Positions 2-50,321 of a DNA stretch of 64,000 bases are shown in pieces. Below the pieces are notes generated by a model. That model did no database searches, was not told the DNA's origin, and worked only from the letters and a program-made list of their open reading frames with translations. The translations under genes were made by a program, and so were the position numbers. Each line of letters opens with the position of its first letter. Position 1 is the stretch's first letter. The stretch is from Candidatus Magasanikiibacteriota bacterium (GTDB taxonomy: Bacteria > Patescibacteriota > Patescibacteriia > Magasanikbacterales > UBA922): assembly GCA_041674805.1 (NCBI GenBank), contig JBAYVA010000001.1:198612-262611 (forward strand). The letters are read 5' to 3'.

Positions 2-1345
2 AAGACAGTCACTACAGTAAAGAAGACTGTTTCCAAAAAAACAGCTTCCAAAACTAATACAAATTCCCGTCCAAATAAAACTCTTAAACGGGTCCAAAAT
101 GTTGGTAAAAAAATTACTAACACAAAAAATAGTGTCAAAAAAGTACTTAGTAAAAGTGCTTTTAAAAGACAAAAAAGAAAAGAAGAAAAAACAAAAGTAA
201 AACTTGACAAATCACAATTTGACAAGAATTTTGTGGTACCTACAGAAGACAAAGTAGTACAATTGGTAAAAAAAGGACGTGAAAGAGGTTTTTTGACTGA
301 GCATGAAATATTACTGTTGTTTGATAGACTTGAGTATTATTTAGATGTGTTTGATAATTTTTTGGACAAAGTAGACAAAAATAGTGTTTCTATTGTAGAA
401 AGTCAGCCAGGTGGTTTACTCGGTAATAGATATAATACTCATAGAGAAACAGTCATGGTAGATTTACAAGGAGATCAAGCTGGTGAGAAGTCATTTTTGT
501 CTTTTGATTTGGCTAATATTTCTCAAGATTCTATCCAAATGTATTTGCGTGAAATTGGTAAGGTACCACTTTTGTCAGCTGACGACGAAGTATCTTTGGC
601 CAAACGACGTGAAAGAGGTGACAAAAATGCTGAACGAAAAATGATTGAAGCCAATTTGCGTCTAGTAGTTTCTATTGCCAAAAAATTTGTTGGTAAATCA
701 TTATCAATGCTTGATTTGATTCAAGAAGGAAATATTGGTTTGTTCCGTGCTGTCAAAAAGTTTGATTATCGTAAAGGTTACAAATTTTCTACTTATGCCA
801 CTTGGTGGATAAGACAAGCTATCACTCGTGCTTTGGCTGACCATTCTCGTACGATTCGTATTCCTGTTCATATGGTCGAGACAATCAATAGATTGCAACA
901 AGTTTCTCGTCATTTGCTTCAAGATCTAGGTCGTGATGCAACTCCAGAAGAAATTGCAGCTGAAATGGGTGAGGAAGTAGAAAAAGTCAAACATATTATC
1001 AAAATTTCTCAAGACACAGTCTCACTTGAAACTTCTGTGGGTGATAATGATGATGACGATACTTCACTTTCTGACTTTATCAAAGACGTCAAATCTGTTA
1101 GTCCTGCACAAGCCGCTGGCGTGGAATTACTCAAAGATTATATCAAAGAAGCGGTCAAAGATCTTTCTCCTCGTGAGAAAAAAATCTTGGAAATGCGTTT
1201 TGGTCTAGATGATGGTGTCACTCATACTTTGGAAGAAGTTGGTAAAGAATTTGGTGTTACTCGTGAACGTATTCGTCAGATTGAATCAAAAGCGCTTGAT
1301 AAAATTAAAGATTTTGATGTGATTAAGAAGTTGCGTGACTATTAA
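2..1345 (+). CDS. rpoD: RNA polymerase sigma factor RpoD (sigma-70). The frame is open from position 2, so the gene is 5' partial; the ORF track starts at GTG 233.
   Basis: Regions 2.4/3/4 are recognisable ([37 protein letters not shown]; [27 protein letters not shown]). A Lys-rich N-terminal region runs in frame back to the window start. Confidence 0.9.
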
Positions 1346-1390
1346 AATATAAAAACATCTCAACAATTAAACACTATAATATTAAAACGT

Positions 1391-1428
1391 AAAAAACAAT
1401 CCCGATAGTTAGTCGGGATTTTTTTTGT
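1391..1428. terminator. Rho-independent terminator hairpin (aatcccga-loop-tcgggatt followed by a T-run), usable in both directions between rpoD and the convergent gene
   Basis: 8-bp stem followed by a T8 run, read directly from the sequence. Confidence 0.6.
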
Positions 1429-1503
1429 AATTTTAATTTTTTGTTTTTATATTTTCATAATAAAAAAGTAATTCATTCACAAGATATTTTATCATGAAAA
1501 CGT

Positions 1504-2256
1504 TTAATCTGATTCGGCAAGAATTTCTAATAAATCTAAAAATAGGTTAATAATATCTAAATAAATATTTACAGCAATAGTGATTGCAGCTCCCCACGAT
1601 TCATCTCCTTTCATTTTTTCCATCATGTTGAAGTCGAAAAGTAAATATAAAGTAAAGATAATAGCTCCAATATATGCTTTGACTAGGGAAAACATTTTTG
1701 AACGGAAAAAGAAAACATTCAAAAATCCCATTATAATTAGTACAAATAATGACATGAATAAAAAACCTCCAAGGAAACTGAAATCAATACTTGTTAGAAA
1801 TACAATCCCAGCTGTAGAAAAAACAGCAAGGGCTGTAGCAAATAATGCTTGAAAAACAATATTGTGCCATTCTTTGTGATATTTAGTAGCGTCAAAAGAT
1901 TTTTCTAATTCATTTTTTTGTTCATCATTAATTTCTTGTCCTTTTTTTATAATAATTCCACGACTTTTGAAATATCTTTTAATTTTGAATCTTTTGCCTA
2001 AGTGTTCAATTGTTGGACCAATTTCCCAGCCAACTAAAGCTGAAAAAACAGCAACAAGAAAAATATTGAGAGGATAAATGTTTGCAAACAACATTATTGC
2101 AAGCAAAAAAACAAATGTAGCAATAACGGTTATAAACATTTCTTTTGTTGTTTCAAACGTTTTATTTATGCGAGATGTTATTGAGGTAATTAACAACATA
2201 CCCCCGACAATTAAGAATGTACGAGCAAATAAGATATCAAACATATTTTTGGTCAA
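1504..2256 (-). CDS. Bax inhibitor-1/YccA family membrane protein
   Basis: Seven hydrophobic segments and a C-terminal NIYLDIINLFLDLL-type motif typical of the BI-1/UPF0005 family. Confidence 0.55.
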   Translation of the reverse strand: MTKNMFDILFARTFLIVGGMLLITSITSRINKTFETTKEMFITVIATFVFLLAIMLFANIYPLNIFLVAVFSALVGWEIGPTIEHLGKRFKIKRYFKSRGIIIKKGQEINDEQKNELEKSFDATKYHKEWHNIVFQALFATALAVFSTAGIVFLTSIDFSFLGGFLFMSLFVLIIMGFLNVFFFRSKMFSLVKAYIGAIIFTLYLLFDFNMMEKMKGDESWGAAITIAVNIYLDIINLFLDLLEILAESD

Positions 2257-2414
2257 AGTATTAATAGTATAAAAGTAATTTTGAAATAAGTTTCTTAATA
2301 GCGTAACTTTTTAAAAGTAGTATTCACAGATAATTTGTTTGTGAATTGTTTATAAGTATATCATTTTTATGGGGAATGGCAAGATATTTTGTTTATTGTT
2401 TATAATATTCAAGT

Positions 2415-4193
2415 ATGTTACAATTCAAGCATTATATTTTCAAAAAAATTTTATTTATGCATTTTTTTTCTTATTTAAAAGAACATTTTATTGTTTTTAT
2501 TTTTTTATTAACCTTTTCATTTTTACCAAGCATTACCAAAGCTGATTCAGTTCCTTATGTCGGAGTGAGAGACGAGGGTTTGAGTGTGGAATACATTAGT
2601 CAATCAGTTGATGACGATATTCAAATCAAAGCGGGGGACAGTGTAAATATTATTTTCAAATTCAAAAATATTGGTACAAAAACTTGGGACAGTAACAGCA
2701 AAAATTATATTTCTGCTTTCACTATGGAACCTCGTTATCGTAATTCTGAATTTCGAGGTGACAACTGGTTGGGCGCTTATGAGACAGCCAAAATAAATGG
2801 ACAAGTGAAACCTGGAGAAATAGCTGAGTTGTCTTTGAACTTGAAAGCACCAAATAAACCTGGTAAATATATAGAAAAATTCTATTTGGCTTCAAACAAC
2901 TATTCATGGGTAAAAAATGGATACTTTTTTGTTGTTTTGAATGTCGTAGAAAATGTTACAGTTAGTGATATTGTCCCTGTCGTTAATGATGAAATTAGTC
3001 AAGTAGTTAATACTGTTGTAGCTACAACTACCACAAAAAATCTTAGTTTTTCTAGTGGAAAATTGTCAATGATTAGTAGTAAAGATTTTATTGCTAAAGG
3101 TGGGCAACAAATTCCTTTTATTTTGGGTTTTCAAAATTTGAGTCAAGTTGCTTGGAATGGTTATACTATTGCCATAACTGATGACAGCAAAGATTATAAT
3201 TTCATTGATGATGATTGGGCTTCAGCCAATGTAATTCTTTCACAAGATAAAGAAATTGTATCTTATACTAATACTCGTGATACTATTTATCTGCGAGCAC
3301 CAAACAAGCTCGGTGAGTACAAACTTAGATTACAGCTTTTTAGCGATAAAAAAGAAGTAGTAGGTGCTTATGTAGATATTATAGTAAGAGTGTTGGTCGA
3401 AGCAGAAGAAAATTATCTAGTAGCAAGCAAAAGTATTGATACAAATTATGTTTTTGAAATAGTAAAAGATGATAGAGAATATTTAGATAGTTTTGATTTG
3501 GTAAAGCTAAATAAAAAATTAAATACCTATTTGCCAGTGCTCATGTTTCATTATATAGAAGATATTTCTGCCAATACATCTGACAAACTTCGTTATAATT
3601 TGTCTTTTTCGCCAGAAAAGTTGGAGCAATTTTTGCAATATTTCAAAAAAAACAACATTGAAACTCTGACTTTTTGGGATGTAAAAGATATTTTGGAAGG
3701 TAAGAAGGATTTGCCAAAGAAAGCTGTGATTCTTACTTTTGATGATGGTTATGTGAGTCATTATAAAGACGCTTTTCGTCTTTTGCAAAAATATGAGATG
3801 AAAGGTGTGTTTTATATAATTACCAATGCTACTTTCAATACTAAAGAGCATCTCAATTGGGAGCAAATAAAAGAAATGTCTGATGCTGGTCAAGAAATAG
3901 GTTCACACACTGTCAATCATTTGGATTTGTCTTTGGTTAGCTTGGAAAAGCAGAAAAAAGAAATAGTAGATTCTAAAAAAATGATAGAAGAAAAAATTGG
4001 TAAGCCTGTAATTTCTTTTTGTTATCCTTCTGGAAAATATAGTAGTACAGCGCTAAAATTGGTAAAAGACAATTATCTTTTTGCCAGAACTACACAAGCG
4101 GGAAAATATTTTTCTTTTGATAACAGATATGAAAATCCAACAGTGAGAATTTTTCCCACAAGTGGTTTTACTTTGTTAGATATTTTGTTTTAA
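2415..4193 (+). CDS. Secreted polysaccharide deacetylase (NodB-homology domain) with an N-terminal beta-rich domain. An alternative start at M2457 is possible.
   Basis: Signal/anchor peptide. C-terminal NodB motifs (ILTFDDGYVSHY; GSHTVNHLDL; CYPSG). Confidence 0.75.
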   Translation: MLQFKHYIFKKILFMHFFSYLKEHFIVFIFLLTFSFLPSITKADSVPYVGVRDEGLSVEYISQSVDDDIQIKAGDSVNIIFKFKNIGTKTWDSNSKNYISAFTMEPRYRNSEFRGDNWLGAYETAKINGQVKPGEIAELSLNLKAPNKPGKYIEKFYLASNNYSWVKNGYFFVVLNVVENVTVSDIVPVVNDEISQVVNTVVATTTTKNLSFSSGKLSMISSKDFIAKGGQQIPFILGFQNLSQVAWNGYTIAITDDSKDYNFIDDDWASANVILSQDKEIVSYTNTRDTIYLRAPNKLGEYKLRLQLFSDKKEVVGAYVDIIVRVLVEAEENYLVASKSIDTNYVFEIVKDDREYLDSFDLVKLNKKLNTYLPVLMFHYIEDISANTSDKLRYNLSFSPEKLEQFLQYFKKNNIETLTFWDVKDILEGKKDLPKKAVILTFDDGYVSHYKDAFRLLQKYEMKGVFYIITNATFNTKEHLNWEQIKEMSDAGQEIGSHTVNHLDLSLVSLEKQKKEIVDSKKMIEEKIGKPVISFCYPSGKYSSTALKLVKDNYLFARTTQAGKYFSFDNRYENPTVRIFPTSGFTLLDILF

Positions 4194-7004: not shown

Positions 7005-7186
7005 AATAGAAAACTAATTTTTATTTCGCATAACATTTGTTATACGAACTCTTTAAAATAGTCGCTAAATTACGCTATTTATTTTAAATAAATATAAATT
7101 TATAATTAGCTAAAAATCCATACTTTTATCATATCAAAAAAACAATCCCTTCACAAGAGATTGTTAAAATTAAATAGTATAGGAGT

Positions 7187-7237
7187 GGAGAACGTAAGTT
7201 CGCCAATTTTTGTAAACAGGGCGAACTTACGTTCTCC
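7187..7237 (-). terminator. Perfect 18-bp inverted repeat hairpin (ggagaacgtaagttcgcc / ggcgaacttacgttctcc, 15-nt loop), 16 nt downstream of the sod stop
   Basis: Read directly from the sequence; the strongest stem-loop in the window. Confidence 0.6.
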
Positions 7238-7252
7238 AATCCTTGTAGCTTT

Positions 7253-7837
7253 TTATTGTAGTCTTTCCTCAACCATCTTCCAATTCACATGATCCCAAAA
7301 TTTAGCAATGAAGTCTGGACGGGCGTTGCGGAAATCTATGTAGTAAGCATGCTCCCAAACATCTAGAGTAAGTAAAGGTTTTTTGCCTTCTGTCAGGGGA
7401 GTATTGGCATTGCTGGTTTGTAATATTTCCAATTTGCCGTCACTAGTCTCTACTAACCAAGTCCAGCCAGAACCAAATAGGGAAGTGGCAGCGGTAGTAA
7501 ATTTTTCTTTGAAATTTTCTAGTGATTCAAAATTTTCAGCAATTTTTGTCAAAGTTTTTCCACCAATTGCTTGAGATTCTGGAATAAGAGATTCCCAAAA
7601 AAAACTATGATTGAAATGTTGAGCTGAATTATTAAATACAGCCATATTTTTTTCACTATTGGCAGTCTTGATGACTTCTTCCAAGTCTTTGCCGACATAG
7701 TCTGTACCTTCTATGGCTGCATTTAGCTTGTTTACATAAGCAGCATGATGTTTGCCATGATGATAATCAAAACCTTCGGCTGTACAAAAGTCTGGCATAG
7801 AATCTTTGGCAAAAGGTAAATTTGGTAGTTCGAACAT
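7253..7837 (-). CDS. sodA: Superoxide dismutase [Fe/Mn]
   Basis: DVWEHAYYIDFRNARPDF and FNNSAQHFNHSFFW signatures. Confidence 0.9.
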   Translation of the reverse strand: MFELPNLPFAKDSMPDFCTAEGFDYHHGKHHAAYVNKLNAAIEGTDYVGKDLEEVIKTANSEKNMAVFNNSAQHFNHSFFWESLIPESQAIGGKTLTKIAENFESLENFKEKFTTAATSLFGSGWTWLVETSDGKLEILQTSNANTPLTEGKKPLLTLDVWEHAYYIDFRNARPDFIAKFWDHVNWKMVEERLQ

Positions 7838-7895
7838 AGGGTTTTTGTTATTTTTTTAAATCGTGTTTTTTAAAACATTAAATTTTAAAATTTAT

Positions 7896-8882
7896 TTAAT
7901 ATCCTAAGATATTTTTTCTTTTTTCAGTCCAAGCAATAGTATCCTTTATTCCTTGTTCTATACTTAGTTCAGCTTTCCAATTTAGTAGTGTATAAGCTTT
8001 TTGTGAACTTGCATAGCCACCAATTACGTCACCTGGTCTTCTTGGTTTATTTTCTTTAGCAATTTTGTATCCAATTACATTTTCAAAAGCTTGGATGAAT
8101 TCCAATACTGTAGCACCTTTTTCTGAACCTAAATTTATCACACAATATTTTTCAGTAATTTTTTCAAATTTTTCAAGAGCAAGCATATGGGCACGAGCTA
8201 AATCCCAAACATGAACATAATCTCTAATAGCAGTACCATCTCTTGTTTCCCAATCAACACCTGTAATAGGCATATTTTCTTTAGTTGCTTGTGTTTTTAG
8301 TATTACGCCTAGTAAATGGCTAGGATTTGCCAACTGTGAACCACTACGAAACTTTGGGTCGGCTCCGACCGGATTGAAATATCTAAGCGAAATAACTTTG
8401 AAGTCATACGCTTTACTAAAATCTTCTAAAATATTTTCAATTATAATTTTAGTATTAGCATATGGACAATTTGCCTTTAGAGGACTTTTTTCATTTACTT
8501 GTAATCCTTCGTCATTGTCATAAATAGAAGCAGACGAGCTAAAAATTATTTTATTTTGGCCTAATTCTATAAGATTATGAAATAATTCTAATGATTTTAC
8601 AACATTTTCTTTGTAGTATTTGTAAGGTTGTGCGACAGATTCAGGTACTACTATGATGGCTGCACAATGAATTGTACAGTATATATCCTTATTTTCAGTA
8701 AAAATTTGTTTTAGTAATTTTTTATCAGCTATATCACCTTCATAAAATATTTTGTTTTTAGTAAATTCTTTTTTTCCTGTTACCAGAGAGTCCAAAATAA
8801 TTGGTTCAATACCTGTATCTTGCAAATATGATGCAATAGTACTACCAATATAGCCGGCTCCTCCTGTAATTAATACTTTCAT
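7896..8882 (-). CDS. galE: UDP-glucose 4-epimerase (NAD-dependent epimerase). The start is placed at the internal MKVLITGG; the longer ORF to 8942 runs through an intergenic palindrome.
   Basis: Rossmann motif VLITGGAGYIGS, a YxxxK region, NPVGA. Confidence 0.85.
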   Translation of the reverse strand: MKVLITGGAGYIGSTIASYLQDTGIEPIILDSLVTGKKEFTKNKIFYEGDIADKKLLKQIFTENKDIYCTIHCAAIIVVPESVAQPYKYYKENVVKSLELFHNLIELGQNKIIFSSSASIYDNDEGLQVNEKSPLKANCPYANTKIIIENILEDFSKAYDFKVISLRYFNPVGADPKFRSGSQLANPSHLLGVILKTQATKENMPITGVDWETRDGTAIRDYVHVWDLARAHMLALEKFEKITEKYCVINLGSEKGATVLEFIQAFENVIGYKIAKENKPRRPGDVIGGYASSQKAYTLLNWKAELSIEQGIKDTIAWTEKRKNILGY

Positions 8883-14855: not shown

Positions 14856-15593
14856 ATGAACAAAAAAAATATCTTAATTTTGGTTTCGTCAATTTTATTG
14901 GTAGCAATTGCGTTGTTTGCTTATATGTTTTTGAACAAACAAAAACCTATTGAAGAAGTAGTACAGTTTGAAGAAATTCTCTTGGTAGATGATAAGGGAT
15001 ATTCAAATATAAATACTTTAAATTTAGATAAAAATTTGGAAAAAACTAAGATAGTAGAGTTGTCTAAAGTAGAAATAGATGATTTGTCTTTTATGAGAGA
15101 AGAAGAAAAGATGGCTCATGATATTTACAAAGTTTTGTTTGATAATTTTGGACAAATTGTTTTTGAAAATATTTATAAAAGTGAACAAACACATACTGAA
15201 GCTATCAAAAAACTTTTGGACAAATATGAATTGGGAGATATTGTGAGAGACAACAACGTAGGTTCTTTTGAAAATGCTGAATTAAAAAAGATGTATATAG
15301 AATTGTTGGAAAAAGGCACAAAGACAATAAAAACTTCTTTTGAAGTGGGTGCTATGGTAGAAGAAATAGATATTTTGGATTTGCAAGAAAAAATAAAAAA
15401 TACAGATAAACAAGATATTATTTTTGTTTACGAAAATTTGATGAAAGGATCTCGCAATCATTTGCGTGCTTTTGTTAAAAATTATGAAAATTTAACTGGT
15501 CAAAAATATGTACCGCAATATTTATCACAAGCAGAGTATGATAATATTTTGAGTATGCAAGTAGAAAGAGGCAATAATAAAAACAATAAATAA
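14856..15593 (+). CDS. Ferritin-like domain protein (DUF2202-like), membrane anchored
   Basis: EEEKMAHDIYKVL...NIYKSEQTHTEAIKKLLDKYEL ferritin-like diiron-type helix pair. Confidence 0.5.
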   Translation: MNKKNILILVSSILLVAIALFAYMFLNKQKPIEEVVQFEEILLVDDKGYSNINTLNLDKNLEKTKIVELSKVEIDDLSFMREEEKMAHDIYKVLFDNFGQIVFENIYKSEQTHTEAIKKLLDKYELGDIVRDNNVGSFENAELKKMYIELLEKGTKTIKTSFEVGAMVEEIDILDLQEKIKNTDKQDIIFVYENLMKGSRNHLRAFVKNYENLTGQKYVPQYLSQAEYDNILSMQVERGNNKNNK

Positions 15594-15641: not shown

Positions 15642-16175
15642 TTAAGAAATTTTTTGAGTTTTTCTTATAGCAAAAATTTTTGATTGAAGCAATATTAATT
15701 CAGCTACTCCTACAAACATAGTTACATAAAACATATCAGCAATCAAACTGTTGCGGAAAAAAGGTAATGCCATATAATAACTTTGTATCAAGCCAGCAAA
15801 ATTGTGAGTATACATTGTACCAAAAGCCCAGACACTAAAATTGGTGATTAAGAAGAATAAAGCAGAACCAGCAATAGTAGCAAAAACTGTATTAGTGATA
15901 TTTTTGTGTTGTTTTAACCAAGTACCAAGTAGAGTAGCCAAGATAAAACTAGCATAAACACTAAACATGATTGGTAAAGAATAAAATCCCAAGAAAATAT
16001 CGCTTATAAGCATAGCTACAACGGGAATGATAACATTGAGCCTATGAGGTAAATAAAGCCCGGAAAAGAGAGCTAGAGCCATTATAGGAGCGAAATTAGC
16101 AGGGTGAGGGAGTAATCGTAGTACAAAGCCAACGATTATCATTGTAACTATTAGAATTAGGTGTTTTTTGTTCAT
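15642..16175 (-). CDS. ECF-transporter S-component-like (substrate capture) membrane protein. It is the last gene of the DUF4430/alpha-toroid operon and a candidate cobalamin S component.
   Basis: 177 aa with 5-6 TM helices and an LRLLPHPANFAPIMALALFSG N-terminal signature resembling the S-component/DUF6580 family. Confidence 0.4.
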   Translation of the reverse strand: MNKKHLILIVTMIIVGFVLRLLPHPANFAPIMALALFSGLYLPHRLNVIIPVVAMLISDIFLGFYSLPIMFSVYASFILATLLGTWLKQHKNITNTVFATIAGSALFFLITNFSVWAFGTMYTHNFAGLIQSYYMALPFFRNSLIADMFYVTMFVGVAELILLQSKIFAIRKTQKIS

Positions 16176-16259
16176 AGGTGTTAAAGGCTTGAAATGCCTG
16201 AAAAGCTAGAAAGGCTCAAAAGGCTTTAATGTGTGAATATTATAGCAGTGTTTATTATA

Positions 16260-18470
16260 TTAGACAAATAATTTGAAGACAAGAAAAAGTCCATATAATA
16301 ATGCACCTAAACCTAGCGAAATTGCTATTTTTTTATTTGCTGGTAATTTTTCTTGTTCTGTAGTTTCAGATATATTTTCTGAAGAATTATCAACATCTTC
16401 AAAAATTTCTTCATCTTCAGTTTCTTCTACTGAATCTTGTTCTTCTACTATTTTTTCACCACGTGTTTCTTCTATTTTTGGATTATTATTTGAATTATTT
16501 TTTGGTTTAGAATTTGTTTTTGCTATATCTAATATATTTTCTTCTATAGTATAAAGCACTGGTAAAATTTCCATGTCTTGTTCATTTTCTGCTACTTCTA
16601 CTATTTCTTCGGTACTAGTTGGCATTTCTTCTTCTAAAACAATTTCAATTGTAGTTGTAGGGATTTGTAGAGTGGTGGTTGCTGTATTTGAATTTGAAAT
16701 ATTTTCATTTGAAATGTTTGTTTTAGAAAAATCTTTTAAAATTTCATTCCAATTTTTATTCAAATAAGCTGGGATAGCATAAGATGTAATCCAAACCCTG
16801 GTTTGTTCAGTATTCTCTTCTTTTGAGGATATTCCACCATCTGATTGTTGTGCTGATTTTAGATAATCACTAGGTGTAGTTCCATTTTTATTCCAATCAT
16901 TTTCATTTTCATCAAGTGCATCAATAGCTTGTAGTGCCCAAGTTGTAGAAAATAAATTTGAATTAAAACTAGAATTATTATCTTGTTTTGATTTTAAATA
17001 ATTTTTTGCAGACTCAATTGCTAATATCACATTTTCATTTGTAGTATTCAAAGATTTTAAAGCTTGGATAGCTGCTGCAGTCATATCTATATCACCAAAA
17101 TTACCTATTTTAGTATTTTGTTTAGAAAGTAAAAAATCAGTGCTTATTTTGATTATTTCATCTTCATAGTTATAACCAGCATTAACAAGAGTAATAATAC
17201 CAAATATATCATCATTATAAAGAGTATTTTCGCCTATTTGTTTTCCATCAAAACTCTCTATTATTTTTTGAATATAATTTATAGAAGATGAATTATATGG
17301 ATTTTTATCTAAAGACATTAAAGCCATGGCTCTACGTTCATAATCTGTTATTTCAGAATTATCTGAAAGGGGATTATTTATTAAATAATTTGCAATACTT
17401 TCTTTTTGTTGAGAATTATTTGAATAGCTACCATAAGCAATTGCTGCCCAATCAGTATATAATGTAGAATCAAAAAAATTTCCGTTTTCAATTTTTGAGT
17501 TTAGATATACAAAAGCATTATCTATAAAATTATTTGTTGTATTAGATGAAGAGGATCCATTACTTTCAGATGGAGTATTTGTTGTTATATCATTTTCTTC
17601 TTCAGTGTTGTTAGAATTTTCTACTGGATTTATAGTCATTATTTCACTAGTAATAAATCCATTTTTTTTGGCATAAATTGTATAAGGTGTGGTAGTTGTA
17701 ATAAATAATTCATAAATACCGTCTTCATCAAAAATTTCTTCACCATTTAAAAATAATGTGCTACTAGCTGAATTTGATAATATTTCGTTCCAATTTTCAT
17801 CGTAACCAGAAGATTCTTTGATATTTAAAGTAGTTGTTGAATTTACAAAAGGTGTAGTAGTAGAAGTTTCAATTTTTAATTGAGATAATCCGTAAAATAA
17901 ATAAATATTTTCTTGTTCTTCTAATATTTCTTGATTAAGACCTTTGGTACCTGGTACATAATAATTATTGTACCATAACCAATAATTAAAATCAGAACCA
18001 TCATAATTATTTATTTTATTTAAAAAAACTTGATCACTATACCAATTTCCTAAAATAGCCCAATCTTTTTCTTTAGATAATTGTTGAATTGCACACCAAG
18101 CATTCAAAGTATTCTCTGTTCCGTTTTCAGTATTTGGACAAGCTGTAACAATAAAATCATTACTATATAATTCTTGATCATAAGTTTGTATTTGAAGATG
18201 AATTGTTGTCGTTGGCAATGGTTCAATTACAATATCATTATTTGGAATTTCTTCTGGTGTAGGTTCTTCAGTACTAGCTACTAAATTATTATCAGTGCTT
18301 AAAATAGCATTCTCAACTATAATTTCATCTTTTGTTTCTGTACTTTCTAAAATAAGAGGAACTTCTTCGGGATTTTCTCCCTCAGCATAAGCAAAATTTG
18401 ATATAGTCAAATTGCCAAATAAACTAAAGATTAAAACTAAATTTATTATTTTAAAATTTACTTTTTTCAT
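16260..18470 (-). CDS. Cell-surface protein with a prenyltransferase/squalene-cyclase-like alpha-alpha toroid repeat domain (transcobalamin alpha-domain-like) and a C-terminal TM anchor
   Basis: Signal peptide. Repeated helical-hairpin motifs (TDWAAIAYGSY, ERRAMALMSL, MTAAAIQALKSL, TTWALQAIDAL). Acidic region followed by a TM anchor at the C-terminus. Confidence 0.55.
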   Translation of the reverse strand: MKKVNFKIINLVLIFSLFGNLTISNFAYAEGENPEEVPLILESTETKDEIIVENAILSTDNNLVASTEEPTPEEIPNNDIVIEPLPTTTIHLQIQTYDQELYSNDFIVTACPNTENGTENTLNAWCAIQQLSKEKDWAILGNWYSDQVFLNKINNYDGSDFNYWLWYNNYYVPGTKGLNQEILEEQENIYLFYGLSQLKIETSTTTPFVNSTTTLNIKESSGYDENWNEILSNSASSTLFLNGEEIFDEDGIYELFITTTTPYTIYAKKNGFITSEIMTINPVENSNNTEEENDITTNTPSESNGSSSSNTTNNFIDNAFVYLNSKIENGNFFDSTLYTDWAAIAYGSYSNNSQQKESIANYLINNPLSDNSEITDYERRAMALMSLDKNPYNSSSINYIQKIIESFDGKQIGENTLYNDDIFGIITLVNAGYNYEDEIIKISTDFLLSKQNTKIGNFGDIDMTAAAIQALKSLNTTNENVILAIESAKNYLKSKQDNNSSFNSNLFSTTWALQAIDALDENENDWNKNGTTPSDYLKSAQQSDGGISSKEENTEQTRVWITSYAIPAYLNKNWNEILKDFSKTNISNENISNSNTATTTLQIPTTTIEIVLEEEMPTSTEEIVEVAENEQDMEILPVLYTIEENILDIAKTNSKPKNNSNNNPKIEETRGEKIVEEQDSVEETEDEEIFEDVDNSSENISETTEQEKLPANKKIAISLGLGALLYGLFLVFKLFV

Positions 18471-19050
18471 ATTTCCATTCTATATTATCCCCCGAATTAA
18501 CTTTTTGATAACTAATACCTATATTGGCACTTTTGCCATTTAGGTAGTAAATCCAATATAGTCCTTTTTCATTATCATTTTTTAAATTATTTATTTCTGT
18601 TACAAATTTTCCCATGCTACCGTAATCTTTTGTTTGAAAAATAAATTCAGATTTATTTTCATTTTGCAATTGTTGCATGAGTTTTTCTAGAATAATATTT
18701 TCTTCAGAAAAATTTATACGATAATTTTTATCATTGACTTTGAAATCTGCAAAGTAGGGAAGTTCTAATACTATTTTTTCTGTTTCTTTTGTACTTGTTG
18801 AGGTATTTGTTGCTACTATTTTTTCATTATTTTTTTTAATAGTAGGACTTGTTTTATTGATAGTTACTTTTGATTTTTCAATAATTGTTTTTTTTTCTTC
18901 TGGTTTATTTTCTGTTTGTTCTATTTTTTCAGCTTGCAAAATTTCTTCATTTTTTTTCAAATTTGTTTCTGGACGAAGAAAGAAAATTAACGAAGAAAAA
19001 AGAAGGGCAAAAAATATCAGCAAATGATATTTCCAATTTATTTTTTTCAT
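18451..19050 (-). CDS. DUF4430 (transcobalamin-like C-terminal/beta domain) protein, membrane anchored
   Basis: C-terminal GLYWIYYLNGKSANIGISYQKVNSGDNIEWKY matches the DUF4430 YW.Y.VNG...G...Y.LKdGD.I.W.Y signature. Confidence 0.6.
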   Translation of the reverse strand: MKKINWKYHLLIFFALLFSSLIFFLRPETNLKKNEEILQAEKIEQTENKPEEKKTIIEKSKVTINKTSPTIKKNNEKIVATNTSTSTKETEKIVLELPYFADFKVNDKNYRINFSEENIILEKLMQQLQNENKSEFIFQTKDYGSMGKFVTEINNLKNDNEKGLYWIYYLNGKSANIGISYQKVNSGDNIEWKYEKSKF

Positions 19051-19059
19051 AAAAAAAAT

Positions 19060-19245
19060 CTGCTTAAGTGAGCAGAAAGATGTAAAAATATTTCTTATTG
19101 TGATAAAAAATAAGAATTTTTTTCCTGCTCGGGATAAATTATACTTGAAGACCGGACTTAACTTTTGTAAAAGTTTTACCGTTGCGGCACAGTGGAGGAA
19201 TTTGACCTCACTTCCAACAAATATAAATTAATTTGTAATATTGTT
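19060..19245 (-). ncRNA. Candidate cobalamin riboswitch / structured attenuator leader upstream of the DUF4430 operon
   Basis: On the minus strand the leader reads GGAAGUGAGGUCAAAUUCCUCCACUGUGCCGCAACGGUAAAA...AAGUCCGGUCUUC. This resembles the cobalamin-aptamer GGUG.AA.UCC, CCACUGU, CCGCAACGGUAA and B12-box-like elements. Two hairpin+U-tract terminators follow; the second ends in U8 directly before the AUG. Confidence 0.4.
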
Positions 19246-19295
19246 ATATTAACGTCAAAAAAAAATTGTGTCAAATTAAGAGTGTTGACAATTAT

Positions 19296-19325
19296 TTGAC
19301 AATTCAATTTTTAGCTTGTTATAAT
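19296..19325 (+). promoter_or_regulatory. Sigma-70-type promoter (TTGACA-18nt-TATAAT) for the lipoprotein gene
   Basis: Exact consensus hexamers. Confidence 0.55.
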
Positions 19326-19354: not shown

Positions 19355-20215
19355 ATGTACAAAAGATATTTATTCACAGTTTTGGCAAGTTTTACTTTGC
19401 TTGGTGCTGGTTGTACTTCATCAATAAATATCAATACTAATTCTTTTTTTGATAAAAAAGTAGAAGTAGAGGATACTAGTCTCAAAGTAGGCTCTGCTGT
19501 GTTTGCTGAATGGAAAGATAAGACTTGGTACAAAGGTACTATCAATGCAACTTGTGAGGGCGGTTTTGATGTTTTGTTTTTGGATAATACAAATAAGTGT
19601 GTAACTGAATTGCAAATTTTGCGAGACAAACTGCCTAATATTGCAGATTTACAAGTAGGTAGCAAAGTAATTGCCAAATGGACAGCTAATGCTTATTATG
19701 ATGCGGAAATTATTAAAGTAAATCCTAATAATTTTACTGTCAGATATTATGACAAATTAGAAAGAGATGTTGTACTAGATGAAATAATTTTGGATAATCG
19801 TGTAGAAGTAAGAGGCACTGTTGAATTACAAAAGACTTCTGAAATAAAGACTTCTGAAATATTGAAAGATAATTTTAAGGCAGGTGACAAAGTAATTGCT
19901 GAATGGATGACTTCTAATTCACTTTATTCAGCAACAATTATTGGCATTTGTGAAAAAGGTTTAAATATAAAATATTATGATAACGCTGAAAAATGTTTAG
20001 CAACTTCACAAATTGTAATAGATTTGCCAGCAGAAAAAGATACTCTGGCAGTTGGTACTAAAGTATTAGTTAGAGATAGTAATACAAACAATTTTTTTGC
20101 TGGTGAAATTAGCAAAATTGTTGGTACTAATTATGAAACAAAGTTTTTGATATATGGTGATGAAGCTGTAAAAGTTTTGCCAATTAGTCAACTTAGATTA
20201 GACACTAGAAAATAA
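19355..20215 (+). CDS. Lipoprotein with four tandem Tudor/Agenet-like about 70-aa repeats
   Basis: Lipobox LLGAGC. Repeats VGSAVFAEWKDKTWYKG / VGSKVIAKWTANAYYDA / AGDKVIAEWMTSNSLYSA / VGTKVLVRDSNTNNFFAG. Confidence 0.55.
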   Translation: MYKRYLFTVLASFTLLGAGCTSSININTNSFFDKKVEVEDTSLKVGSAVFAEWKDKTWYKGTINATCEGGFDVLFLDNTNKCVTELQILRDKLPNIADLQVGSKVIAKWTANAYYDAEIIKVNPNNFTVRYYDKLERDVVLDEIILDNRVEVRGTVELQKTSEIKTSEILKDNFKAGDKVIAEWMTSNSLYSATIIGICEKGLNIKYYDNAEKCLATSQIVIDLPAEKDTLAVGTKVLVRDSNTNNFFAGEISKIVGTNYETKFLIYGDEAVKVLPISQLRLDTRK

Positions 20216-48710: not shown

Positions 48711-49703
48711 TTATTCAATTCTAGCGACTAAATCTTGTATTTTGAATGTTGTAAAGTATAAATCAGCACACTCTATAGCAAAAACTTCAATATCATCACG
48801 ACCGTGTTCATCCAGCAAATCACGAATATTATTTATTTCTTTTAGAGGTACACCAATAGCCTTAATTATTTCTGGTAAAATTGATCTCATAGTACGGACT
48901 TCATGTGCTGATCCTAGAGGGGGTTTTTGAAAAGGAATTTTATTTTTATCAAGACATAAAATAATTCCTATATTGTTTGGTATATCAGATTCACCATTTA
49001 GAAGGTTGTTTGCTGTTGTTTGAAAAGTAGTATCATTACGATAGCTTCTTGTCCAATTTCTAAGTTTATTTTCATATTTTGTAGCCCTTTCTTTTTTAAT
49101 ACCTACTCTTTGTTTGTGCTTTTTAATATATTCTAATCCTGCCTTTGAGATTTTTTCGGCACGAACTGAATCTGCCATAAAAAATCTAAAAAAATCATTT
49201 GGATCACCAAGTTGCCATTCTGGCTTATTGTCTTTTGTCATGTATTTTGCTGCAAACCATTTTGCATAAAAATAGCTACCAGCTAAAGATACACTTTCCA
49301 TATCACCATCAGGCATCCAAGGGTCTTCATGAATTTTCAAACCTTCATCTAGAATTTTTTCAAAAAGTTGAACTGTATTAGGGGTATCTTGTTGATCAGT
49401 ACTATATTTGTCCCTATCATATTTATAAAAACCTGTACCATGATATAATAAATCTTTTTTTAATCCTTCTTCTGGTGTGCCAAAAAGTTTTTCTAGTTGT
49501 TTTTTTTGTTCTTTATAAGCTGTATTGACTTCTGGACTTGGAAGTCCTTCTACATCTAAATATTCTATGATTTTTTTATCAAGTAATTCGGGTGTTCGTA
49601 TTCTTATCATTTCTAAAAGAAATTGTTTATTTTGTTCGTGTGTAGATTCTAGGAGTTCTTCTCCTGTTGCGAGCATATGCTCATATCTAGCTCTTTCACC
49701 CAT
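48711..49703 (-). CDS. Hypothetical protein (330 aa), adjacent to the intron-containing tRNA
   Basis: ORF only; no recognisable motif. Confidence 0.4.
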   Translation of the reverse strand: MGERARYEHMLATGEELLESTHEQNKQFLLEMIRIRTPELLDKKIIEYLDVEGLPSPEVNTAYKEQKKQLEKLFGTPEEGLKKDLLYHGTGFYKYDRDKYSTDQQDTPNTVQLFEKILDEGLKIHEDPWMPDGDMESVSLAGSYFYAKWFAAKYMTKDNKPEWQLGDPNDFFRFFMADSVRAEKISKAGLEYIKKHKQRVGIKKERATKYENKLRNWTRSYRNDTTFQTTANNLLNGESDIPNNIGIILCLDKNKIPFQKPPLGSAHEVRTMRSILPEIIKAIGVPLKEINNIRDLLDEHGRDDIEVFAIECADLYFTTFKIQDLVARIE

Positions 49704-49819
49704 AAAATTATTGTTATTTTTTATACTTTAATATATTCTACCATTTTTTAAAAAATAAATCTAAGTATTTTATATTTATATAACAAAAAAACGCTAATTA
49801 AAGCGTTTAAATGTGTTTG

Positions 49820-50321
49820 CTCGGCGAGTGGGGCTCGAACCCACGACCCACTGGTTACAGTTTCCTCTCTCTTTCGAAAAAGACTGGACTATTTCATCAC
49901 CCATGCCATAAGCCCCGATAAATCGGGGAGCATTAAGGGTGCGGAGCGCTTCGAATCCGTTTCTGCGAATCCTACTCCCACAAGGGGATAGTCTCTGAAC
50001 CTTCTTATTTTTTCAGAAGTATTTGTTTATAGACAAACCTTGAAAACAAGGATCTACAATTTATTACTTCAATTTTACCGAGGTAAAAATTTGAAAAGAT
50101 AAGCTTGGCTGCAGGTTGCCATCTTGACCTAAATCAAGAACAGGTTTCCTGTCTAACAAATCTATTTAGATCTGCAGTTTCTGCTATTACAATTAAGTAA
50201 GACAGAACAGTTCACTCCGTTGGCACTGTGGTGTTTCCACCGCAGGCTGCTATATTTAATTCCAATAAATCAGAATTACTTCTTTTAACAGCCAGTTGCT
50301 CTACCGCTGAGCTACCGCCGA
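49820..50321 (-). tRNA. tRNA-Asn(GUU) interrupted by a ~430-nt group I intron in the anticodon loop. Exons are 50288-50321 and 49820-49857; the intron is 49858-50287. CCA is not encoded.
   Basis: The joined exons give a 72-nt cloverleaf: UCGGCGG-UA-GCUC-AGCGGUA-GAGC-A-ACUGG-CUGUUAA-CCAGU-GGGUC-GUGGG-UUCGAGC-CCCAC-UCGCCGA-G. The intron carries group I R (GUUCAGAGACUA) and S (AAAUAGUCC) elements forming P7. The 5' exon ends in U and the intron ends in G. Confidence 0.65.

Follow-up and report, generated by a model that had tools for sequence, protein, structure and literature searches.

Bacterial surface proteins that combine an SLBB domain with a toroid were independently predicted to be B12 scavengers by Burroughs, Balaji, Iyer and Aravind in 2007 (PMC1796856), the part of that paper dealing with them also predicting that such surface B12 binders are paired with ECF transporters, and that the scavenging takes place in organisms without B12 biosynthesis. 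For the membrane step, there are the experimentally validated ECF-CbrT (Santos et al. 2018, PMC5997447; PDB 6FNP), which had been predicted from the nrdJ-cbrS-cbrT-pduO cluster of Lactobacillus delbrueckii (PMC5997447), and BtuM of Thiobacillus denitrificans, for which B12 import without an ECF module has been proposed (Rempel et al. 2018, PMC6072759; PDB 8OVV/6FFV). As a DUF4430 gene adjoins rtpR/nrdJ in L. rhamnosus (PMC9963975), CbrS is probably a DUF4430 protein.

The three-gene operon described here comes from a member of the Patescibacteria with a tiny genome and is, quite probably, a corrinoid (vitamin B12) scavenging system that is off when adenosylcobalamin (AdoCbl) suffices. A system of this type is already known; the DUF6580 membrane component found here and its spread in Patescibacteria were previously undescribed, and what is new is that DUF6580 emerges as a candidate for corrinoid transport.

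The operon and its leader RNA

All three co-directional minus-strand genes (199, 736 and 177 aa) were confirmed where the original prediction had placed them within the window, i.e., the whole 64-kb stretch of DNA that was analysed, and the locus is laid out as follows:

19246-19274, minus strand: sigma-70-like promoter (consensus scan, 10/12 matches, pattern match only)
19106-19242, minus strand: AdoCbl (cobalamin) riboswitch aptamer (full-length match to Rfam model RF01482)
19070-19130, minus strand: predicted antiterminator (minimum-free-energy folds)
19051-19076, minus strand: intrinsic-terminator-like hairpin and U8 (terminator scan)
18451-19050, minus strand: ORF1 (gene S), 199 aa
18964-19035, minus strand: ORF1 N-terminal membrane anchor, residues 6-29 (hydrophobic segment)
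ORF1 between anchor and DUF4430/SLBB domain, minus strand: Lys/Glu/Thr-rich linker
18454-18756, minus strand: ORF1 C-terminal DUF4430/SLBB domain, residues ~99-199 (Pfam, phmmer and profile matches)
16260-18470, minus strand: ORF2 (gene T), 736 aa
ORF2 residues 1-29, minus strand: signal peptide
17886-18233, minus strand: ORF2 DUF4430-like alpha/beta domain, residues ~80-195 (hhalign)
17616-17879, minus strand: ORF2 beta-sandwich, residues 198-285
16707-17537, minus strand: ORF2 alpha/alpha toroid, residues 312-588 (AlphaFold model, pLDDT there mostly >90)
ORF2 residues 589-710, minus strand: disordered acidic stalk
16266-16337, minus strand: ORF2 C-terminal TM anchor, residues 712-735
15642-16175, minus strand: ORF3 (gene M), 177 aa
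15597-15628, bidirectional: GC-rich hairpin followed by a U-tract on either strand (terminator scan, 13-bp stem)

The last of these hairpins is the end of both the operon and a convergent DUF2202 gene. The start of ORF2 overlaps the stop of ORF1 by 20 nt, and an overlap of the S and T genes, seen at 28/38 junctions in related loci, suggests that the two are translationally coupled.

The leader does contain every motif that had been quoted as resembling a cobalamin aptamer and B12 box, and the aptamer scores above the gathering threshold of RF01482 (62.3 bits against 50, E=4.6e-9), its helices showing compensatory changes across 49 homologues (92% paired, 106 double-change cells, a level that 0/500 shuffles reach). 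The promoter-like element consists of a -35 TTGACA (19274-19269), a 17-nt spacer and a -10 TAATAT (19251-19246), sites of this kind not being enriched relative to shuffles in the AT-rich leader region; it would put the transcript start, at about 19240, near the 5' end of the riboswitch.

Minimum-free-energy z-scores are -3.6 for the leader and -4.2 for 19051-19135. In the predicted fold, GAGCAGGAA (19130-19122) pairs with UUUCUGCUC (19078-19070) as an antiterminator enclosing an all-A/U hairpin (19112-19089) followed by U5. The terminator hairpin UCUGCUCACUUAAGCAGA (19076-19059) runs into a U8 (19058-19051) located immediately 5' of the ORF1 ATG. As the antiterminator's 3' strand shares nucleotides with the 5' arm of this hairpin, the two predicted structures would be mutually exclusive. 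Of the two terminators proposed originally, the second is recovered by the terminator scan (which gave 5 terminator-like sites where 1.3 were expected for the region), whereas the first, the A/U hairpin, is present in the minimum-free-energy fold and fails the scan criteria. A hairpin and U-tract between the aptamer and the first gene recur in 39/47 related riboswitch-bearing loci with differing stem sequences, and the riboswitch anticipated in the leader has proved genuine, an AdoCbl riboswitch whose expression platform is of the termination type. Without the ligand, the antiterminator would form and the three genes would be transcribed, whereas AdoCbl on the aptamer would allow the terminator to form just 5' of the first start codon.

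The three proteins

ORF1 was expected to end in DUF4430, the beta domain of transcobalamin, and residues 123-196 indeed match Pfam DUF4430 (PF14478) with E=1.9e-16 (60.7 bits, cut-off 23.8). A phmmer search matched haptocorrin 4kki (E=0.0044), and the family profile matched haptocorrin (2.4e-7), intrinsic factor (5e-5) and 3u7z (2.3e-4), as well as transcobalamin. Each of these profile matches falls on the beta domain, of which the ORF1 domain is, by these sequence matches, a homologue. The N-terminal anchor is shared by 75/80 ORF1-type proteins.

ORF2 is the anchored surface protein that had been foreseen, having an N-terminal signal sequence (found in 49/50 ORF2-type proteins) and a C-terminal TM helix, and its model shows the expected helical toroid. 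The idea of a split transcobalamin encoded as two halves, on the other hand, was rejected: ORF2 is more than a missing alpha half because it carries its own N-terminal DUF4430-like domain (hhalign 97.2%, E=3.4e-11; a Pfam DUF4430 match is seen in 20/58 ORF2 homologues), and the toroid gene is absent from ~20 two-gene loci. ORF2 by itself combines beta and alpha parts, in permuted order, and ORF1 is a further, paralogous protein with a beta domain.

ORF3 belongs to Pfam DUF6580 (E=1e-47), and the small 6-TM S-component-like protein of the original prediction models as a six-helix ECF S-component fold, for which BtuM, a solitary transporter, is the best match in structure. The public annotation starts it at Met12 (166 aa, P0001); homologous sequences support the 177-aa form. 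Among PDB sequences, CbrT was the sole, marginal match to the DUF6580 profile (E=0.0055), and BtuM did not match it at E<=10. The marginality of the former was counted against the B12 reading, as was the lack of any cysteine in ORF3, the Cys ligand used by BtuM being absent from DUF6580. ORF3 is the candidate corrinoid translocator.

In the proposed mechanism, the N-terminal helix of ORF1 would tether its transcobalamin-beta-like DUF4430 domain to the membrane, facing outside, and the exported ORF2 would hold its DUF4430-like domain, beta-sandwich and toroid outside the cell by means of the C-terminal helix and long acidic stalk. If transcobalamin is a guide, the corrinoid may be bound by the beta-type domains and in the cavity of the toroid, and would then be handed to ORF3 and moved across the membrane; in relatives, BtuR- or PduO-type adenosyltransferases encoded next to the cassette would turn it into AdoCbl, to be used by the class II ribonucleotide reductase (RNR) whose gene is also a neighbour.

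The cassette across genomes and the competing readings

The cassette was found in 80 species-level (species-representative) genomes, nearly all labelled Patescibacteria. At least 73 loci have the DUF4430 gene co-directional with DUF6580, and ~45 have the toroid gene; the conserved core is DUF4430 plus DUF6580. Of the 69 loci having upstream sequence, 47-50 have a riboswitch 5' of their first cassette gene. Many of these riboswitches score below the Rfam threshold (35-44 bits), and it took a lineage-specific model to recover them; the sub-threshold Rfam AdoCbl matches coincide in coordinates with the hits of that model. No riboswitch was detected in ~14 loci of the two-gene S-M type or in 4 with M alone, which was counted against the B12 reading. 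BtuR/CobA adjoins the cassette in 10 loci and the B12-dependent class II RNR in 7-13; a PduO-type adenosyltransferase lies directly 3' of DUF6580 in loci L077 and L060, the former reading nrdJ - riboswitch - DUF4430 - DUF6580 - pduO, and one protein (P0279) is a Rosetta-stone fusion of DUF6580, a seventh TM and DUF4430. The B12-repressed scavenging system originally suggested is strongly backed by this context of riboswitch linkage, adjoining B12-use genes and fusion; the finding of no B12-dependent enzyme or adenosyltransferase within the 64-kb window was counted against it for this particular organism.

It is improbable that the cargo is something other than complete cobalamin, be it a different tetrapyrrole or a precursor (heme, cobinamide or some further incomplete corrinoid) or else cobalt, with the riboswitch only reporting B12 status. 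Cobalt and precursor transporters can be under B12 riboswitch control, which speaks for such a cargo. ECF-CbrT also carries cobinamide (PMC5997447), and heme uptake was reported for the homologous L. sakei lsa1836-1840 locus, where an ECF system is accompanied by one transcobalamin alpha-like and one beta-like protein, encoded separately (bioRxiv 10.1101/864751), the assignment of Lsa1839/Lsa1840 to heme, unlike the reading here, being counted against B12. AdoCbl control of heme uptake would, however, have no evident logic, the capture domains are homologous to binders of whole cobalamin, and relatives place genes for adenosyltransferases and for AdoCbl-dependent RNR next to the cassette, not ones for lower-ligand attachment or corrin-ring biosynthesis. 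Still harder to credit is ORF2 as a B12-unrelated, merely co-transcribed enzyme (terpene cyclase/prenyltransferase-like) or glycan-binding surface protein, even though NCBI names its homologues “terpene cyclase/mutase family protein”, its best matches in both sequence and structure are squalene-hopene cyclase (SHC) and drimenyl-diphosphate synthase, and an invariant Asp (D462) aligns with Asp376, the catalytic residue of SHC. By sequence, the toroid resembles the repeats of squalene-hopene cyclase (E=3.4e-14) more closely than it does transcobalamin; that transcobalamin is no nearer to it than terpene cyclases are, and that the Pfam Cobalamin_bind score lies below threshold (19.8 vs. 25 bits), were both counted against B12. 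Yet ORF2 is exported and tethered outside the cell, away from isoprenoid diphosphates, has a single toroid instead of the two-domain cyclase architecture, reads D-I-D-M in place of DxDD (family consensus s-v-D-l), occurs in many homologues as a fusion with DUF4430 domains, and is preceded by a B12 riboswitch in ~44 genomes.

A tentative but serious contender, contesting the energy-coupling step only, is that DUF6580 belongs with the ordinary group II ECF S-components and works on a shared EcfA/A'/T module encoded elsewhere in the genome, ATP-driven like ECF-CbrT. Genes of group II S-components are usually unlinked to their ECF module, which favours this possibility, and the fold is common to many ECF S-components; some homologues touch Pfam S-component models (P0066, PF12822; P0289, PF07155, E=0.003), and CbrT, the sole PDB sequence relative, requires an ECF module (PMC5997447). 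As had been predicted, though, no ORF with Walker A and ABC signature was found anywhere in the 64-kb window, and the +/-6 kb around the cassette in the 80 genomes (~0.9 Mb total) contained just one ABC-motif ORF; the best structural match is a solitary transporter, and S-components normally go without an extracellular binding protein, whereas here a tethered binder is nearly always co-encoded, and once fused. We lean slightly towards the solitary, BtuM-like mode; if an ECF module is required, the operon alone is an incomplete transporter.

Comparison with described systems

From RF01482 (cobalamin clan CL00101), the riboswitch differs in nothing essential: it matches the full-length model, lies in the leader 5' of a set of transport genes, and has an expression platform of the terminator type. 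With mammalian transcobalamin, intrinsic factor and haptocorrin, the surface proteins share two modules, the alpha/alpha6 toroid and the beta-grasp domain (DUF4430), and presumably tight extracellular cobalamin capture for delivery to an uptake system. They differ in the permuted order of ORF2 (the beta-like domain N-terminal to the toroid, a beta-sandwich between), its sub-threshold Cobalamin_bind score, the stand-alone extra beta-domain protein and the membrane tethering of both, and the proposed delivery is to a membrane transporter instead of an endocytic receptor.

BtuM resembles ORF3 as a small protein with an S-component fold, but is without detectable sequence similarity to DUF6580 (E<=10), binds cobalt via an essential Cys80 where ORF3 has no cysteine, occurs in Gram-negative proteobacteria together with BtuB and lacks co-encoded tethered binding proteins. 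CbrT, which takes cobalamin or cobinamide and is likewise a small membrane protein of the S-component type with six helices, is of another Pfam family with marginal similarity, and its host belongs to Firmicutes; no ECF module was found near the operon in the 64-kb window, and the operon is riboswitch-controlled and includes a large toroid surface protein. Class II RNR and PduO are co-encoded with CbrT and, in relatives, with the cassette, the order nrdJ - DUF4430 - DUF6580 - pduO in L077 and L060 mirroring the L. delbrueckii cluster.

The part of the 2007 paper (PMC1796856) that treats SLBB and toroid proteins makes no mention of riboswitch control, and the operons described there have CbiO/CbiQ-type (ECF) genes where this one has DUF6580 and no ATPase. 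In being secreted or anchored, in joining a transcobalamin-beta-like SLBB domain to a toroid in either order, and in often having a second paralogous SLBB protein in the operon, the proteins described there are exactly what ORF2 and ORF1 are.

Operon layout and the AdoCbl riboswitch

The three genes are co-directional on the minus strand, as originally predicted and as ORF calling confirmed, with ORF1 (encoding an anchored DUF4430 protein) and ORF2 (a toroid surface protein) overlapping by 20 nt and a gap of 84 nt preceding ORF3 (a DUF6580 membrane protein).

Features of the operon and its leader, in order of transcription
19274-19246, minus strand: promoter-like TTGACA-17-TAATAT (pattern match), from which a transcript would begin at the aptamer
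19076-19051, minus strand: terminator UCUGCUCACUUAAGCAGA + U8 (terminator scan), abutting the ATG
18451-19050, minus strand: ORF1, 199 aa
16260-18470, minus strand: ORF2, 736 aa
15642-16175, minus strand: ORF3, 177 aa
15597-15628, both strands: strong bidirectional hairpin (terminator scan), closing the operon against a convergent DUF2202 gene

The leader motifs on which a cobalamin riboswitch had been proposed are all present 5' of ORF1, and a covariance-model search of the whole window with all Rfam families bore the proposal out: two matches exceeded the curated thresholds, one of them being the AdoCbl riboswitch RF01482 at 19106-19242 on the minus strand (62.3 bits against a gathering threshold of 50, E = 4.6e-9, model positions 1-149 of 149). 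Covariation over 49 homologous leaders, checked for just the 17 pairs of an RNAalifold-derived sub-structure, gave 92% of cells paired and double changes in 12 of the 17 pairs, a result equalled by none of 500 shuffles (0/500), while slid controls reached 38-63% paired.

The unconstrained minimum-energy fold (z = -3.6 and -4.2) pairs GAGCAGGAA (19130-19122) with UUUCUGCUC (19078-19070), which consumes the 5' arm of the terminator, so that antiterminator and terminator compete in the predicted folds. As the Rfam alignment places the same GAGCAGGAA segment in the 3' hairpin of the aptamer, the simplest reading of these models is that the leader would act as an OFF switch under AdoCbl, the binding of which would keep GAGCAGGAA within the aptamer and let the terminator hairpin form. 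Two terminators had been suggested for this leader; the scan recovered the second, with its U8 at the ATG, but not the first, an all-A/U hairpin (19112-19089) followed by U5, which appears in the fold and fails the scan criteria.

Both flanks of the operon deserve a brief description. The convergent DUF2202 gene (ferritin/rubrerythrin-like, 14856-15593, plus strand, Pfam 7e-52) shares the bidirectional terminator with it, and a divergent 286-aa predicted lipoprotein (19355-20215, plus strand) is made up of Tudor/Agenet/SGF29-like repeats (Pfam DUF4537 2e-10, Tudor-knot 4e-8), which is odd for a bacterial surface protein, and has a perfect-consensus promoter (TTGACA-18-TATAAT, 19296-19325) back-to-back with that of the riboswitch. 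Elsewhere in the window, a tRNA gene at 49819-50321 (minus strand) carries a group I intron of ~430 nt in its anticodon loop (Rfam RF00028, 65.7 bits at 49865-50281); ARAGORN calls it tRNA-Thr(tgt) with introns allowed and finds no tRNA anywhere in the 64-kb window by default. Just downstream lies a 330-aa ORF (48711-49703, minus strand) with no Pfam match.

Putative capture proteins and the candidate transporter

ORF1 consists of an N-terminal hydrophobic anchor (residues 6-29), a charged linker and a C-terminal DUF4430 domain (Pfam PF14478, 60.7 bits against a cut-off of 23.8, E = 1.9e-16). Its predicted kinship with the beta domain of transcobalamin holds, as a profile built from 28 DUF4430 domains of related loci matched, among PDB sequences, haptocorrin (2.4e-7), intrinsic factor (5e-5) and transcobalamin-2 (0.05) in their C-terminal beta domains only, as well as 3u7z, a bacterial DUF4430 structure.

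The structure model of ORF2, computed with 58 homologues, opens with a signal peptide; next come an alpha/beta domain at residues 80-195, a beta-sandwich at 198-285 and a helical toroid at 312-588, and the chain ends in a disordered acidic stalk of 120 residues and a TM helix. The pTM of 0.52 makes the relative placing of these domains unreliable. The toroid itself (pLDDT mostly >90) is the alpha/alpha fold that had been foreseen, with QW-like repeats of the class II terpene cyclase/prenyltransferase type. By family profile, squalene-hopene cyclase (3.4e-14) is nearer than any cobalamin carrier, and no match to the transcobalamin alpha domain was obtained in the PDB; Pfam PF01122 (Cobalamin_bind) stays below threshold on ORF2 itself (19.8 bits, cut-off 25, E = 4e-4) and matches 37 of the 58 homologues at E <= 0.01. 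The cyclase DxDD motif, however, is not intact (ORF2 reads D460-I-D462-M and the family consensus s-v-D-l, against D374-V-D-D in squalene-hopene cyclase), ORF2 has a single toroid instead of the two-toroid (beta-gamma) architecture, and its signal peptide and C-terminal anchor point to an extracellular protein, unlike cyclases, which use a cytoplasmic or membrane isoprenoid substrate.

ORF1 and ORF2 had been taken for the two halves of a split transcobalamin, a reading that had to be dropped, since hhalign aligns residues 80-195 of ORF2 with the DUF4430 domain of the small protein (97.2%, E = 3.4e-11). The Pfam DUF4430 model has no match on ORF2 itself and is found in 20 of its 58 homologues, and the ORF2 profile gives a weak match to the beta domain of intrinsic factor; by sequence comparison, residues 80-195 are thus a relative of DUF4430, and ORF2 is a permuted beta-plus-alpha protein instead of the missing alpha half. 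Both transcobalamin folds are present in it, but in the order beta-like domain, beta-sandwich, toroid, as opposed to toroid then beta, and whereas transcobalamins are one chain, a further beta domain is encoded here by a separate gene, ORF1.

ORF3 has DUF6580 as its sole Pfam assignment (E = 1e-47), and its model (pLDDT 86.6) shows a six-helix S-component fold, in line with the S-component likeness noticed in its sequence. The only PDB sequence match of the DUF6580 family profile is CbrT, the S-component of the B12 transporter ECF-CbrT (E = 0.0055), and occasional homologues weakly touch PF12822 and PF07155. No chain of BtuM, the S-component-fold B12 transporter proposed to work without an ECF module, was matched in the PDB at E <= 10 by either ORF3 or a 30-sequence DUF6580 profile. 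In BtuM, Cys80 in loop 3 is an essential cobalt ligand (PMC6072759); the translation of ORF3, by contrast, holds no cysteine at all, which excludes a BtuM-type Cys80 ligation. Invariant in the family are, among others, R20, P23, H24, N27, F28, P30, S58, D59, G63, Y65 and W116, which would lie in outward-facing loops if the positively charged termini are cytoplasmic; R20, H24, N27, S58, D59, Y65 and W116 would line an extracellular pocket, with H24 as a candidate cobalt ligand.

The family comprises ~6,000 clusters at 50% identity, and in one homologue, P0279, a single chain runs from DUF6580 through a seventh TM helix to DUF4430. P0257 (a C-terminal toroid end followed by DUF6580) was considered as a second fusion and set aside, as its start falls within a domain and it could be an artefact of gene calling. 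In an uncultured Berkelbacteria chromosome (locus L038, OY969116.1, 5959-6804), the DUF6580 protein ends in a fused thioredoxin domain (Pfam 9.9e-24), a cytoplasmic redox domain that could relate to corrinoid reduction or decyanation.

The cassette in related loci and its B12-related neighbours

In 80 species-representative loci encoding DUF6580, annotated with local HMMs, the cassette is strongly conserved and co-directional throughout: a gene for a small anchored DUF4430 protein, a toroid gene, sometimes a second DUF4430 gene, and then DUF6580. At least 73 of the 80 pair DUF6580 with a DUF4430 gene, the toroid gene is present in ~45, and ~20 have the DUF4430 and DUF6580 genes only; the toroid proteins often hold one or two internal DUF4430 domains. 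Of 38 junctions between a DUF4430 gene and a toroid gene, 28 show the stop codon of the former overlapping the start of the latter, and in 12 the overlap is exactly the 20 nt of the window.

At the Rfam gathering threshold, just 3 of the first 13 loci gave a riboswitch match, and lineage-specific covariance models were therefore built in two rounds. In 50 loci, these place a riboswitch on the coding strand directly 5' of the first gene of the cassette, the rate being 47-50 of the 69 loci with upstream sequence, including essentially all toroid-bearing ones, and 39 of 47 have a hairpin and U-tract between aptamer and start codon. Of five sub-threshold cases searched at a relaxed Rfam E-value, three gave AdoCbl at matching coordinates, and the elements of L003 and L009 gave no AdoCbl-type match. 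In L038, the riboswitch sits between two DUF4430 genes. The loci include one from outside Patescibacteria, L073 of the Ignavibacteriota. Many (L008, L010, L012, L015, L017 and others) come from TPA "binchicken" assemblies titled "uncultured Gammaproteobacteria" or "Saccharibacteria" with a Patescibacteria-type cassette, and these titles are probably unreliable as taxonomic labels.

The original prediction that no ECF A/T genes lie nearby is borne out for the 64-kb window, where a search for Walker A and ABC-signature motifs found none, the sole Walker A protein being ClpB. Likewise, NrdJ, BtuR and PduO of related loci gave nothing in the window as tblastn queries, nor did Pfam reveal anything relevant to ECF or B12 enzymes in its ten largest ORFs. 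Within +/-6 kb of the cassette in the 80 related loci, ABC ATPase motifs occur in only one ORF, a distant one (L013). A PduO-type adenosyltransferase directly follows DUF6580 in L077 and L060, and weaker PduO matches lie 5' of the DUF4430 gene in L069 and, as a fragment at a contig end, 5' of DUF6580 in L065; a BtuR/CobA adenosyltransferase is found near the cassette in 10 of the 80 loci and a class II ribonucleotide reductase in 7-13, the order in L077 being nrdJ - riboswitch - DUF4430 - DUF6580 - pduO.

Other observations in these neighbourhoods include a second AdoCbl-type riboswitch downstream of the L077 cassette (7136-7322, 64 bits with the lineage-specific model R2), followed by a 474-aa ORF (7320-8744) with no Pfam match and a Cys-rich C-terminal tail, which may be a further B12-regulated gene, and an intein with a LAGLIDADG endonuclease in the class II ribonucleotide reductase beside the L074 cassette (468-3830). 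The commonest non-cassette neighbour is a VirD4/TraG-like type IV coupling ATPase (e.g., L077 9641-12034; 25 of 80 loci), and SecDF-PPIase fusions lie near the cassette in 20 of 80; this neighbourhood may only reflect conserved synteny in small genomes.

Interpretation and relation to known systems

Taken together, the operon quite probably serves corrinoid uptake under repression by AdoCbl. The original interpretation is largely right, save for the split-transcobalamin idea; its proposals of a group II ECF style and of corrinoid auxotrophy are conjectures. As to how the importer would be energized, a solitary mode and reliance on an ECF module appear about even, with a slight lean to the solitary one. 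A bolder reading, which we hold only tentatively and think rather doubtful, would make DUF6580 the third independent S-component-fold family of cobalamin transporters (after CbrT and BtuM), working without an ECF ATPase module and depending, unlike every characterised S-component, on a membrane-tethered extracellular DUF4430 domain, with or without a toroid partner, to hand over the corrinoid; on the same reading, Patescibacteria would take up most of their B12 in this way, being made dependent on the B12 of others by a class II ribonucleotide reductase. DUF6580 would then be a "binding-protein-dependent solitary S-component".

With the corrinoid-uptake reading of the operon, a domain of unknown function gains a concrete and testable one. 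Rempel et al. (PMC6072759) note that the membrane proteins that take up B12 have yet to be identified in most prokaryotes. The cassette is a likely route to B12 for many ultra-small, probably symbiotic Patescibacteria, and adjacent class II ribonucleotide reductase genes link it to DNA-precursor synthesis and, hence, to a dependence on B12-producing neighbours. An S-component-type transporter nearly always paired with, and once fused to, a tethered binding domain also challenges the notion of unaided substrate binding by S-components, while the permuted SLBB-plus-toroid proteins inform the origin of animal transcobalamins. The functional prediction bears on B12 dependence in an important uncultured lineage and is conceptually unsurprising.

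In the literature searched, no mention of DUF6580 was found, nor a description of it as such an importer, of the lack of adjacent ECF genes, of its near-universal pairing with a tethered DUF4430 protein, or of how widely Patescibacteria carry the cassette under riboswitch control; nothing relevant turned up there on Patescibacteria/CPR with a cobalamin riboswitch or Patescibacteria with an ECF transporter either. Rodionov et al. 2009 reportedly defines cbrS and cbrT, and we infer CbrS to be a DUF4430 protein.

The kind of system, on the other hand, has clear precedents. Burroughs et al. 2007 (PMC1796856) describe transcobalamin-like SLBB domains of bacteria, joined to a toroid in either order and often sharing an operon with CbiO/CbiQ genes and a second SLBB protein, for which they predict B12 scavenging. 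ECF-CbrT, predicted from an nrdJ-cbrS-cbrT-pduO cluster, is an experimentally validated B12 ECF transporter (PMC5997447); in L. rhamnosus a DUF4430 gene adjoins rtpR (PMC9963975); the L. sakei ECF system, whose alpha- and beta-like genes are separate, was assigned to heme (bioRxiv 10.1101/864751); and BtuM is a solitary S-component-fold B12 transporter (PMC6072759). Given these precedents, a system that combines transcobalamin-like surface capture with an importer of the S-component type, and that has ties to NrdJ and an adenosyltransferase, belongs to a known kind.
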